Shown here piece by piece: positions 7,624-36,341 of a stretch of DNA of 64,000 bases; position 1 is the first letter of the stretch, and each line of letters starts with the position of its first letter. Below the pieces are notes generated by a model. The model saw nothing but the letters and a program-made list of their open reading frames with translations. It did not search any database and was not told where the DNA came from. Source of the DNA: Eledone cirrhosa (Eukaryota); contig OZ024763.1 in the NCBI GenBank assembly GCA_964016885.1, forward strand, positions 1,922,001 through 1,986,000. The letters run 5' to 3'. Position numbers and translations under genes: made by a program.

Positions 7624-7813
7624 CGTTATTCCGGGTTGAATCGGAGGTAACCACAGTAAGTAAGGTACTCAATACATTGCAGAGTATAAAAGTTTTAATA
7701 TAGATGAGATTCTACAGGACTAGAACTGTTTCATTCTTTAGAAATCATCAGGATTCCTGATGATTTCTAAAGAATGAAACAGTTCTAGTCCTGTCGAATC
7801 TCATCTATATTAA

Positions 7814-7817
<4 letters not shown>
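7624..7817 (-). mobile_element. Foldback element family A (Penelope-like terminus) within (TA)n
   Basis: 63-bp inverted arms 7691-7753 and 7755-7817 (1 mismatch); same family at 24555 and 30222; hammerhead inside; (TA)n on both sides. Confidence 0.8.
7752..7800 (+). ncRNA. Type I hammerhead ribozyme motif (family A)
   Basis: GATTC-CTGATGA-tTTCTaaAGAAt-GAAA-CAGttctagtcCTG-TC-GAATC; mirror copy on minus strand 7708-7756 has one stem I mismatch. Confidence 0.78.
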
Positions 7818-7843
<26 letters not shown>

Positions 7844-7844
<1 letters not shown>

Positions 7845-8012
7845 AGCAAAAGGGATATTTAATTTGTTGGTAATTCAACAAATATAAATGTTTATAACTG
7901 ATTCAAAGCACTTGACAAGTTTTCTGAAGTATAATATTCAATGATATTAAATAAATATAGAATAAATATGGTTTTATAAATATAGTTTCCATTTATTTAA
8001 TATCATTGAATA
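7844..8012 (-). mobile_element. Diverged family B-like foldback remnant
   Basis: Inverted repeat ATATTCAATGATATTAAATAAAT/ATTTATTTAATATCATTGAATAT; shares TTTTATAAATATAGTTTCCATTT and its 3' tail with 35923-36342. Confidence 0.6.
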
Positions 8013-8020
8013 TATATATA

Positions 8021-8175
8021 AGTGGAAGCTTCGTAAAATCAAAGCGTAAAATCAAAGCTTTGGCTGTGGCCAAACTAACGACCCACAATTAGGAATGAAC
8101 AGCTAAGCACTCAATAAACGTATGTTATTACTCTAATTACTCTAAAGTAGGCCTCAGAGTAATAACATACGTTTT
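8021..8175 (-). mobile_element. Foldback remnant family G adjacent to (TA)n
   Basis: Inverted repeat AAACGTATGTTATTACTCT/AGAGTAATAACATACGTTT; GAGTGCT on minus strand at 8106-8112. Confidence 0.5.
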
Positions 8176-8247
8176 GACAGCTTGACAAATTGAAAATTGC
8201 GGCAGGTAGACCTAGCCACATAATACCAAAACCAACGAAATAATTAA

Positions 8248-8520
8248 TATCATCATCATCGTTTTACGTCCGTTCTTCCACACTAGCATGGGTTAGATGG
8301 GTTGTCCTGCTGTGAGCAGTGTCCAGTCGGCTGACCTTGTCCTGCTCGTACGGGAACTGATTCTGGCTTGATTTCTACAGCTGGATGCCCTTCTTAACAC
8401 CAACCTCATTTACAGTGAGTGTTGGGTGGGTGCTTTTTTAGCCGTGGCGCCTACACGTTCACTTTACAGTTTGGGCTGGGTGCTTTTTTGCCGTGGCACC
8501 TCCACAACCATTTTGCAGTG
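8248..8520 (-). mobile_element. RTE-related SINE-like element with (GAT)n tail
   Basis: Homologous to 6577-6745 and 4065-4273. Confidence 0.7.
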
Positions 8521-8594
8521 GGAGGGTGTGGGGGCATATTGTCTATATGCTTCAGCTTCGGCTTGTTCCTGTGGGGGGAGGGGGGTCTTCCGTA

Positions 8595-9040
8595 TTACTG
8601 CGGGACGCCAGAGGTCACGGTTTGTGTCATTGCTCTTGAGAGGTACAATTGTGTAAGGTTGGCTTTTATCACCTCATCCCAAGTCTTCTTGGGTCTCCCC
8701 ACTCCACGGCTTCCATCAACTTCTAGTGCTCTGCACCTTTTTATGCAGCTGTCATACTTCATATGCATCACATGTCCATACCAACGTAACCTCCTCTCCT
8801 GCACACAACATTTGATTCCTCTGATGCTCAGTCTCTCTCTCAATTCGTTTATACTTTGCTGTTCGCGTATATTACTATTACACATCTATTACACATCCAT
8901 TACGCATGCAAGCTTCGTTTCTTTCTAATCTGCGCAAGTCTTCTACAGACAGCGCCCAGGTCTCATACCATGTAACATTGCTGTTCGTATACACGCATCA
9001 TACAGTCTGCCTTTCATTTTGAGGGAAAAGCCATTTGCAG
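8595..9040 (-). pseudogene. Degenerate RTE-clade LINE ORF C-terminus
   Basis: ...SLKMKGRLYDACIRTAMLHG... and ...ELRERLSIRGIKCCVQERRLRWYGHVMHM...EVDGSRGVGRPKKTWDEVIK; RLRWxGH and GRPxxxW are RTE C-terminal hallmarks; frameshifted. Confidence 0.88.
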
Positions 9041-9299
9041 CTCGCAGTGGCCTAGCTCCCTGAACTTCTTCCATCCCGTATATATATATATATATAATTG
9101 TTTCTACTTTGGCACAAGGCCAGCAATTACCCCAGTGCATTACTGGTACTTTATTTCATCAACCCTTTATGTGTATATATATATATATAAAATTAGATTA
9201 CTAAATTAAACGAACAAGCAAAAATTATGCTTTGATTTTAAAATGTGTGTTTTATAAACACACACATTCACTCACTAGCTCTCACAAAGAACCCCTCCC

Positions 9300-32796: not shown

Positions 32797-32839
<43 letters not shown>

Positions 32840-32842
<3 letters not shown>

Positions 32843-33110
32843 GATAAATCTACCAAGAGTTTACGGTAGTGTCCAATCCGTATGAAGAACTCATTGTAAT
32901 CCAGATATCATGGAAAGAAGAGATGCAATGAAAAATCACTTTCGGTGAAAGATAAACGGAATACAGAGTCAAGATAAAATATTAAAAAAATAATGAATAA
33001 AACAATGAAACAGTTCCTTATATTAAACAAAAAAAGTTCATTATTTAACGATCGTTTCTAGGATATATATGTGTTAGAATTGGCATGCATATTCAACAGA
33101 TCTATGTACA
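32840..33110 (-). mobile_element. Probable Penelope-like 3' remnant
   Basis: Minus strand CTGTTGA...GAAA-CGATCG-TT (degenerate hammerhead), GAGTTCT at 32886-32892, terminal hairpin CTACC...GGTAG, then (TA)n. Confidence 0.42.
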
Positions 33111-33379
33111 AAATTATACAAAATTATACAAACTATCAAGATTAAATATACATACCCAACACATATATATGCCGTCTTCAGAAATATATATATATATATT
33201 GTTATACTTTGGGAGGGTCATTCAGAAACGAAATATATATATATATAGTTATGTAATAAACAACATAAGGCAATTATTCCATTTACCAGTGGTTTCTTAA
33301 AAGCAAAAAATGTTGCTTTCAATCCTCAGAATGAAAAAATCCTGGTCTGTTTATTGAATTTGGATTTTAAAAACAAAAA

Positions 33380-33419
<40 letters not shown>

Positions 33420-34134
33420 TGTTACTAAGTAAGACCATTATTCAACGCAGTACTCCATGCTTTAAAGACATTTTAGTGTAGATATTATTTAAACATGTAA
33501 ACCACCATCACCACTGCCACAGTCATCATCACTGCCAACACTACCACCACCACCACCATCACTACCAACAACAATGAACACTACCACCCCCAGCACCTCC
33601 ACCATTTTCACTTCCATACCACTATCAACAACACTACCATCCTCACCACCAACATTGCTACTACCACCATAACCACCACCACAACCTCCACCATTTTCCC
33701 TTCCATTCCACTAAAATAACAAGAGAGAGACATTAAAAATTCTTCACATCATCTTGAAACTGCAGACTTCCTTCCGTTGTTGGAACCAAAAAATGGTAAA
33801 AAAAAAAACAAAGGTTGTTTTGTAGGTTTTAAATATCAAAATATTGTCTGAGAGGCAATATCTTTAGTTTCTACAAACCTTTCAACATAGTTTTGAAATG
33901 TCTACCGGAACCTCTTTGTTTTTAAATACTAATAAAACATATGTTATTTTAATCTGGTCTTACACCAGGCAGTTGATTTGGTAAAGTTGTTAAAGATTTC
34001 AGTATTTGTTCTGGATCTCTGGATTCAAATCTTGCTGAGGTCCCGAGTTTGCCTTTTCCTTTCATCTATTTGGGGGTCGATAAAGAAAGTACCAGACTAG
34101 TACTGGTGTAAACCTCTTTTTGCTCTCTCCTCTC

Positions 34135-34785
34135 ATCTCCCAGCTCTCACATCCTGGATCTTCTATTAGATCAAAAGAAGGGAAGGTGTGTTGACACTAT
34201 CTGACATTACCTTACATCCATTTTGGGGTTGATAAAGAAAGTACTGATGCAAACCCTTCTCTCATCTCCCAGATGTCACACTCTGGATCTTCCATTATGA
34301 ATGGATGGGGTGTTGAAAGTATGTCTGTGTCAGCTGAGGTCCTCACATTACCTTACATCATTTTGGGGTTGATAAAGAAAGTACTGATGCAAACCCTTCT
34401 CTCATCTCCCAGATGTCACACCCTGGATCTTCCATTATGAACGGATGGGGTGTTGAGAGTATGTCTGTGTCAGCTGAGGTCCTGACATTACTTTACATCA
34501 TTTTGGGGTTGATAAAGAAAGTACTGATGCAAACCCTTCTCTCATCTCCCAGATGTCACACTCTGGATCTTCCATTATGAACGGATGGGGTGTTGAGAGT
34601 ATGTCTGTGTCAGCTGAGGTCCTGACATTACTTTACATCATTTTGGGGTTGATAAAGAAAGTACTGATGCAAACCCTTCTCTCATCTCCCAGATGTCACA
34701 CTCTGGATCTTCCATTAGATCAAAGAAAGGACAGGGGTACTGAGAGGATGTTTCAAGATCAATAAAGAAAGTACCAGGCCAGTGT
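34135..34785. repeat. 140-bp tandem repeat (~4.5 units) containing an S1 SINE fragment
   Basis: GATAAAGAAAGTACTGATGC at 34231, 34371, 34511 and 34651. Confidence 0.93.
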
Positions 34786-34794
34786 TGATGCGGC

Positions 34795-35602
34795 CCTCCC
34801 TCTCTCTCTCTCTCTTTCTCTCTTCTCTCTCTCTCTTTCTCTCTCTCTCTTTCTCTCTTCTCTCTCTCTCTTTCTCTCTCTCTCTTTCTCTCTTCTCTTC
34901 TTTCTCTCTTCTCTTCTTTCTCTCTTCTCTTCTTTCTCTCTCTCTTTCTCTCTCTTTCTCTCTTCTCTTTCTCTCTCCTCTCATCCCTCTCATCTCTCTC
35001 CTCTCATCTCTCTCCTCTCATCTCATCTCTCTCCTCTCATCTCATCTCTCATCTCTCTCCTCTCATCTCTTTGTCTCTCATCTCTCTGTCTCTCTTCTCA
35101 CTCTTCTCTCTCCTCACTCTCTCTCTCCTCTCATCTCTCTCCTCTCATCTCTCTCCTCTCATCTCTCTCCTCTCATCTCTCTCCTCTCATCTCTCTCCTC
35201 TCATCTCTCTCCTCATCTCTCATCTCTCTCCTCTCATCTCATCTCTCATCTCTCTCATCTCATCTCTCATCTCTCTCCTCTCATCTCTGTCTCTCATCTC
35301 TCTGTCTCTCTTCTCACTCTTCTCTCTCTCTCTCTTCCCACTCTCTCTCTCCTCACTCTCTCTCTCTTCTCACTCTCTCTCTCTTCTCACTCTCTCCTCT
35401 CTCTCTCCTCTCATCTCTTCTCTCTCTCCTCTCTCCTCTCTCTCCTCTCTTCTCTCTCCTCTCCTCTCGTCTCTCTCCTCCCCTCTCTTCCCTCTCCTCT
35501 CTCTTCTCCTCTCACTCTTCTCTCTCCTCTCCTCTCACTCTCTCCTCTCCTCTTCTCTCTCCTCTCTCCTCTCCTCTTCTCTCTCCTCTCTCCTCTCTCC
35601 TC
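34795..35602. repeat. 800-bp polypyrimidine (CT-rich) tract
   Basis: Seen directly in the sequence. Confidence 0.95.
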
Positions 35603-35922
35603 TGCCACATCTTGGATGATCTGTGTCAGACAACATACTTTGTGGCTTATAGTTACAACCCTTTATGTTCCATAACCCACATTCAGATTCTTACCCTACA
35701 TCACCCTCACTAGTTTTTCACCCTTCTTTCAGGAAGGGGTGGAATTGTGGTCCCTATTTTGGTATGGGATGACAGTGGGTGAGTGCTGGTGGTGGTGGGG
35801 TTCTACTCTTGCACAACCACACACATTCCTTAGCACTTGCATCTGCACACACATATACATTTGTACATGTGCACACATAATCACACACACACTTGTGGAT
35901 ATATATATATATATATATATAT

Positions 35923-36341
35923 ACGATATTAACAAATGGAAACTATATTTATAAAACCATATTTATTTCATTATACATATTTCAAGGACACCAAGTTAAA
36001 TTATGGTGTGCTTTCATCAGATAAAATATAATATAGATCAGTTTTATAAATAAATATTGACATACTCTTATCCGGGAGCTTCCAACAGTAATGGTTGCAT
36101 TTTTTAAGGTTATGTCAATATTTATTTCTAAAACTGATCTATATTATATTTTATCTGATGAAAGCACACCATAATTTAACTTGGTGTCCTTGAAATATGT
36201 ATAATGAAATAAATATGCTTTTATAAATATAGTTTCCATTTGTTAATATATCGTATTTTTACTCCAAATATTTGTTGAGTGCTTTATATCAGTTATAAAA
36301 ATATTTGCTTGTTGTATTCCAACAATTTAAATAGAACTTTT

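Follow-up and report, generated by a model that had tools for sequence, protein, structure and literature searches.

Twin stems beside the two microsatellite ends of putative Hydra-clade Penelope-like retrotransposons in Eledone cirrhosa

Introduction

Penelope-like elements (PLEs) of the Hydra clade are characterized by RWR/RWK, DKT and CxCX5C linker motifs in the protein, together with CxxC and CxH motifs around a C-terminal GIY-YIG domain, and by hammerheads in their pseudo-long terminal repeats (pLTRs), insertion into (TA)n, inverted 5'-truncated copies and an optional tail (Craig et al., 2021, PMC8557442). The elements described herein, from a stretch of 64,000 nucleotides (nt) of the Eledone cirrhosa genome (GenBank assembly GCA_964016885.1, contig OZ024763.1, positions 1,922,001 to 1,986,000, forward strand; hereafter the window), resemble the Hydra clade in these hallmarks, with hammerheads that are predicted from sequence cores. 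They differ from the published account in three respects. A hammerhead is described for the clade, with no tail stem in the text examined, whereas a stem was found here; the tails are 64-92 nt long as opposed to the 30-40 bp given for PLEs in general; and at least eight families linked to open reading frames (ORFs) are present, compared with one octopus Hydra family in the supplement (PMC8557442).

The Poseidon element of Anolis carolinensis (PAc) has two internal start sites for the reverse transcriptase (RT) downstream of the hammerhead, and these bound the tail; both DNA strands are cut and extended, and a dimer is predicted (Frangieh et al., 2024, PMC11167929). The present elements resemble PAc in having two tail-bounding ends downstream of the hammerhead, but PAc belongs to another clade and its start sites are in an AC-rich stem-loop, 111-118 nt inside the ORF, whereas here both sites are in the 5' leader, upstream of the stems, and a duplicated conserved stem is not reported for PAc in the portions of that study considered here (PMC11167929). 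The choice of internal start site in PLEs, along with the one-sided tail and the mirror copy, has been a standing question for two decades.

Hence the clade, the hammerheads, the (TA)n target, the tail and two-site initiation are already known, and what we add is a twin stem that is a real and conserved cis-element of a known element class. It is apparently undescribed: a search of the literature and Rfam, which excluded Repbase, subscription papers and bioRxiv supplements, found no description of it.

Results

The original prediction for this window was a conserved cis-signal in the form of a GAGTRCT-like 7-mer close to microsatellite junctions, and all 17 of the listed 7-mers were verified for sequence, coordinate and strand. 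A conserved signal at these ends is supported by genome-wide enrichment, by covariation and by published Hydra consensus sequences, although the conserved unit is a structured stem and not the 7-mer. The latter is the 3' arm of a stem of ~25 nt that reads 5'-RCUC, inner stem, 2-nt bulge, GAGY and then RCU, in which the inner stem closes 6-88 nt and the bulge is 1 nt in one family (E; families are designated by letters). Among 27 curated units, of which 16 were picked irrespective of their pairing, the outer helix is ACTC/GAGT in 15, GCTC/GAGC in 10 and ACTT/AAGT in one, with a mismatch in the remaining unit, and family F adds the pairing TCTC/GAGA; the outer pair covaries as A-U, G-C and U-A. 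The first inner pair is Watson-Crick in 27/27 units (12 T-A, 14 C-G and 1 G-C) with inserts of 6-88 nt. Because the 5' arms were misaligned by MAFFT, the pair table is anchor-based. An alternative in which the two palindromic 3' arms pair with each other was dropped, as it would give mismatches in families C, G and K.

Enrichment over shuffled sequence and control motifs is clear in a sample of 100 evenly spaced 10-kb stretches (1 Mb) of the 3.0-Gb genome. A full stem accompanies 74 of 340 GAGYRCT sites, compared with 8-14 of 227-285 in five shuffles, and (TA)5 lies within 130 nt downstream of 58/74 stems, compared with 0-5 for eight control motifs. Among the descriptor clusters, 13/24 are TA-linked and 11/24 have no downstream (TA)n. 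A genome-wide pattern with no inner-stem requirement gave 555 matches against 53 for the reversed control, and the first inner pair is Watson-Crick in 21/27 distinct loci from this pattern, which represent few families. In the window itself, RAGTRCY faces (TA)n at a distance of 30-110 nt in 17/109 non-low-complexity flanks, against an average of 2.7, and never more than 9, in 1000 shuffles; the antisense orientation is found in 7 flanks, in part because AGTACT is palindromic. The 17 flanks comprise 14 of the listed sites and three others, namely two AAGTACC sites that belong to another abundant repeat and one at 33449, where no stem was seen by eye. An Rfam scan of window positions 7400-36600 returned 146 weak matches, all of which fell short of the gathering score and included no ribozyme family.

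The listed sites had been thought to lie in otherwise unrelated families, and this view has to be abandoned. They fall into about eight families, six of which lead into related ORFs, and most are ends of Hydra-clade PLEs, the clade assignment of the host elements being a prediction from motif hallmarks. Most sites are within fold-back insertions that contain hammerhead cores, and the families traced outward reach ORFs that begin with KNIP/KDIP and contain RWR and SDKT; family A, for example, reads into a Hydra-type ORF in loci L211/L212/L235. Six aligned N-termini are 31-42% identical to that of family E, R-W and SDKT are invariant in 6/6 families, and the window families with ORFs have DKT and not the DKG that, along with a CxxC linker, marks Neptune-type elements. 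The complete ORFs of families K (709 aa, amino acids) and C (717 aa) contain YRDDG and IVY..YIG. That of K has CNCRNRADC (the CxCX5C linker), CDLC (CxxC) and CKH (CxH), the same pattern is present in C, and no CCHH was seen by eye in these two, which are the families that were followed to the C-terminus. Pfam gave no match for three Hydra protein pieces, and a Pfam search for GIY-YIG (PF01541) yielded almost only Neptune-type elements, with the link to Hydra made via a neighbor in loci L042/L043. Cores of the pattern CTGANGA..GAAAH, which are predicted ribozymes, lie upstream of stem 1 in families A, B, D, and E, while family C has GAAAC and a strong helix without an upstream CTGANGA (window 23880-23930 and 31595-31670; L207). 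Insertion into (TA)n was observed, as were the general PLE traits of partial tandems (pLTR), an inverted 5'-truncated copy and a tail at one end only.

The stem is present twice per element, between the hammerhead and the start of the ORF. Each family also has two microsatellite ends, 64-92 nt apart, which delimit the PLE tail, and the short end is directly before stem 1. In most families stem 1 is ~50-70 nt after the hammerhead GAAA, the two stems are 68-92 nt apart, and stem 2 is 38-148 nt before the ATG, a leader position that rules out a coding origin of the motif. In families A, B, C, D, E, and K (even sample plus window), 133/157 ends are 4-9 nt upstream of a stem, with the start of (TA)n ambiguous by 2 nt since the TA is supplied by the element, and among the 134 TA dinucleotides of these leaders only 17 are followed by a stem after 4-10 nt. 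This count leaves aside family G, for which the query of the short-end test was contaminated by a neighboring repeat, and family F23, for which the offsets conflict (-6 to -12 versus -19 to -36 with a low-complexity query). A short end is combined with a long one in 40/42 fold-backs of the even sample plus window (P=2e-10 versus 50:50), and in 87/91 when all loci are taken, a set that includes loci picked by search and is partly de-duplicated.

A short end just before stem 1 predicts a second stem after the long end, where the element continues into the next unit. The continuation searches asked solely for non-microsatellite sequence past the long end, and the continuations showed the second stem in families B, C, D, and E; it is also found in K, G, I, F and the M/O group. 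The position given in the original prediction must be reworded in this light. The motif does face a (TA)n tract, but the distance of 35-90 nt to that tract is only the length of the tail, and the constant spacing is that between the stem and the TA junction upstream of it. A motif copy 35-90 nt before (TA)n is the mark of the short end, and the long-end mark is absent from that insertion. Likewise, the signal that was placed at the 3' end occurs twice, once immediately after each end in the 3' direction of the RNA. Four small hairpins reported in the tails are present in the sequence but have no common sequence or position.

The three family A copies in the window have stem 1 (ACTC..TT GAGT ACC) at 7664..7685 (minus strand), 24677..24698 (plus; 7-mer at 24692) and 30343..30364 (plus; 30358). 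The first is in a fold-back at 7624..7816, with its long end at 7624, its short end at 7816 and hammerhead cores at 7728-7751(-) and 7757-7780(+), and the second is in a fold-back at 24558-24738 with cores at 24583-24606(-) and 24611-24634(+). Family B has stem 1 at 13135..13162 (plus; 13156), in a fold-back at 12843-13218 with cores at 12893-12940(-) and 13030-13077(+), and at 30537..30564 (minus), in a fold-back at 30482-30890. For family C the corresponding positions are 23948..23974 (plus; 23968) in the fold-back 23807-24019 and 31546..31572 (minus) in the fold-back 31501-31682. Family D is represented by 36261..36283 (plus; 36277), in a fold-back at 35923-36347 with cores at 35979-36020(-) and 36155-36196(+), by a D-group variant with the compensatory pair ACTT/AAGT at 7907..7930 (minus), and by a 3' arm at 13424..13430 (plus) whose 5' arm is lost or rearranged in that copy. 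Stem 1 of family E, with its 1-nt bulge, is at 31425..31447 (plus; 31441) in a fold-back at 30909-31484 with cores at 30952-30974(-) and 31353-31375(+). That of family G at 12398..12460 (plus; 12454) closes a 50-nt insert, with stem 2 past the long end in L156, and that of family I (GAGT TCT) at 32886..32969 (minus) has a 71-nt insert, with stem 2 (GAGC TCT) and a Hydra-type ORF in L274. Family K is present as a fold-back remnant at 10869..10979 (long end 10869, short end 10979) with no stem. The 7-mer at 12022..12029 (minus) was rejected as an instance of the motif, as it is the helix III palindrome GAAAGTACT of a minus-strand hammerhead in a Neptune-type element. The GAGAGCT at 32246..32252 (minus) is uncertain: it matches the GAGA-GCT variant of family F stem 2 and has no clear 5' partner arm.

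Both stems of family I have UCU in place of RCU (window 32886-32969(-); L274:1125-1213(-)). Judged by sequence, in this family and in family E, where both stems have the 1-nt bulge, the two copies look as if they were changing together within a family. One family (loci L099 and L214) can be read as a stem in both orientations, as GAGYRCTC is self-complementary.

Family F is a non-coding tandem unit of 616 nt (L367:1340-2360; window 10322-10850 and 8021-8260) that keeps both stems, ends in (TA)n, has a longest stop-free frame of 74 aa, shows no fold-back short end and looks non-autonomous. Its stem 1 at 10407..10433 (minus) has an inner stem one base short, while in an F-like family the stem at 8106..8160 (minus) is rearranged through a small inversion. 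The M/O groups are related to F, are similar in look and keep both stems. As a non-coding tandem unit ending in (TA)n, family F is like the animal non-LTR retrozymes (PMC7229834; 10.64898/2026.07.22.740005), which have a type I hammerhead in each non-coding tandem unit. It is unlike them in that no canonical hammerhead core was found by pattern in its unit, and in that a shared tail stem is not named for retrozymes in the sections of these sources considered here.

By eye, the stems are also seen in 4/6 published Hydra consensus sequences, which come from three phyla. There are clear units in Hydra-2_Amil (coral), Hydra-1_Ajap (two units) and Hydra-2_Ajap (sea cucumber), and variant units (GCCC/GGGC and GCTC/GTGC) in Hydra-1_Crog (sea louse). 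A metagenome scan reduced 103 pattern matches to one locus, on a marine contig (L328), where a Hydra-like ORF of 36% identity is preceded by a hammerhead and two stems, in the order hammerhead, stems, ATG, and where stem 1 has an outer mismatch.

Discussion

We propose that the reverse transcriptase docks on the stems in the RNA and is thereby placed at two internal start sites, and we put the probability of this at roughly 0.6. The stems, their pairing pattern, the two ends, their spacing and the short-plus-long rule are observed directly. We infer recognition by the RT from the geometry of the ends and from results obtained in vitro with PAc (PMC11167929). In the proposed sequence of events, the endonuclease would cut both strands within (TA)n and the protein, perhaps as a dimer, would bind both stems of a circular or read-through RNA. 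Each cut 3' end would then pair with the UA that precedes one of the stems by 4-9 nt and prime copying in the upstream direction, and the two complementary DNAs (cDNAs) would join head to head to give a fold-back in which a short end is matched by a long one. Between the two start sites would lie the PLE tail, always with stem 1 inside it. The stem that sets a start would itself be left uncopied, which is why only stem 1 would be seen, and only in long ends.

A more specific form of this proposal, which we offer tentatively and regard as somewhat doubtful, is that the twin stems encode two docking sites for a dimeric RT related to telomerase, such that the two ends of one double-strand break prime at separate stems of a single RNA. 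If so, the PLE tail and the inverted pLTR would be explained together, non-coding parasites would gain a minimal tag for mobilization into (TA)n, and the ACUC found 7-9 nt past the short end of Neptune-type elements would point to a start-site signal across PLE clades. A template-adjacent stem likewise guides a TERT-related RT in the case of the telomerase RNA template boundary element and SL5 of DRT10 (PMC12632851), but those stems lie on the 5' side of the template and determine the end point of copying, whereas the stems described here lie on the 3' side of the first base to be copied and would determine the starting point; the likeness may be no closer than an analogy.

Should docking by the stems be correct, the RT family closest to telomerase would have its first defined RNA recognition element, and the stems would possibly offer a small cis-tag for targeted insertion. 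A stem of ~25 nt at a fixed offset, in two copies and from corals to sea cucumbers, specifies exact mutations for an existing assay.

Several results weigh against the docking proposal. No end precedes stem 1 in family F (0/29 ends) and there are none in its M/O relatives either. The second stem is imperfect in some families: that of E closes a long insert and in most copies has a mismatch in its outer stem, that of A is degenerate (GCAC/GTGC, no bulge), and the inner stem of D and G stem 2 is a single pair. Some ends are displaced, with an extra short end at -17 in family A (4/13 short ends) and most ends at -10 in family I (4/6). The consensus sequences Hydra-1_Amil and Hydra-1_Obim, the latter of which family E resembles by eye, have weak variants only (2/6), and the PAc start sites are inside an AC-rich stem-loop and not upstream of one (PMC11167929). 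As to the pairing data, 11/27 units came from a descriptor that requires pairing, and A2, 8106, 10407, 12022, 13424 and 32246 are excluded from the 27-unit table. Lastly, the outer stem has P>0.5 in folding for 14/27 units as sense RNA and 15/27 as antisense DNA, near-equal numbers that do not pick out the strand or the molecule.

That last result bears on a second explanation, in which the stems act as DNA, single-stranded or cruciform. The GIY-YIG endonuclease would bind this hairpin and cut a cDNA or tandem intermediate at a TA located 4-9 nt from it, and the ends would arise by resolution and not by initiation. The antisense DNA folds equally well, GAGYRCTC is its own reverse complement, and the ends are on TA, which is the target dinucleotide. 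The tail has been ascribed to endonuclease-mediated resolution (Craig et al., PMC8557442), and the D. virilis tail is required for endonuclease recognition, as cited in PMC11167929. There is also a precedent in SsnA, a GIY-YIG nuclease that binds the NTS hairpin in single-stranded DNA, reads both its sequence and its structure and cuts a few bases upstream, although SsnA is a bacterial stand-alone nuclease that acts on single-stranded DNA only and has no RT, which makes it a precedent and not a relative (PMC11893778). However, the PAc tail ends map to RT start sites in vitro (PMC11167929), and under resolution alone there is no reason to expect that each fold-back combines a short end with a long one. 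The counts at flanked positions, read on the sense strand (G-U 4, A-C 0, other mismatches 6), weakly favor that strand. We consider cleavage of a DNA hairpin the main rival reading, though a rather unlikely one.

Less probable still is that the stems serve some other purpose in the 5' leader, such as ribozyme folding, translation, RNA stability or promoter function, with the ends fixed by something nearby. Their location, with stem 2 close to the ATG and stem 1 mostly at its ~50-70 nt from the hammerhead GAAA, would suit such a role, as would the retention of stem 1 in family F with no end seen before it. On the other hand, the distance to the ends is tight (4-9 nt) while those to the ATG and between the stems vary, and a function in translation is at odds with the retention of both stems by the non-coding family F. 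Chance or functionless shared ancestry is highly improbable and largely refuted by the genome-wide, end-position and pairing results, for while the motif is short, shuffles give ~10 stems per Mb, 11 of the 24 descriptor clusters are without (TA)n and the families have a common ancestor, pairing is kept despite base changes and very different insert lengths, the flanks are unalignable, and the stems recur in four phyla or sources.

Additional observations

Two families deserve separate mention for their copy structure. Family C forms a head-to-tail array (L326 and L327; G000:C1:91474000-91490000) with at least four junctions 3542-3543 nt apart, open ORFs of 717-719 aa and three whole units that differ at 2-8 positions, which fits either rolling copying of one RNA or later duplication. 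In family K (L051-L080) the best 150 N-terminal matches are 92-100% identical, many of them in open frames of ~713 aa, a sign of recent spread in this very abundant family.

In Neptune-type elements, the only 7-mer within 200 nt of the first (TA)n at 30 PF01541 loci, nearly all of them Neptune-type, was a hammerhead palindrome, in a check where GAGC variants were outside the pattern and several loci ended at an internal tract. Three Neptune-type families (L013/L040, L039/L041/L047 and L031/L044) have two ends, with ACTCGTG 7-9 nt after the short end, and in two of the three it opens an ACTC-GTGT..ACAC-CTC stem. The ACTC is at the same register as in the Hydra stem and the 3' arm is different; no second ACTCGTG copy was found past the long end in L044.

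The source of the AAGTACC matches is an abundant dispersed and stemless repeat of ~170 nt, probably a short interspersed element (SINE), which ends in ..AGTAGAAACAAT and is often beside (TA)n (4800-4906, 11180-11345, 12210-12385 and 32290-32480). The window also contains minisatellite arrays at 1-2409 (60-nt units), 27143-28323 (26 nt) and 5508-6138 (72 nt).

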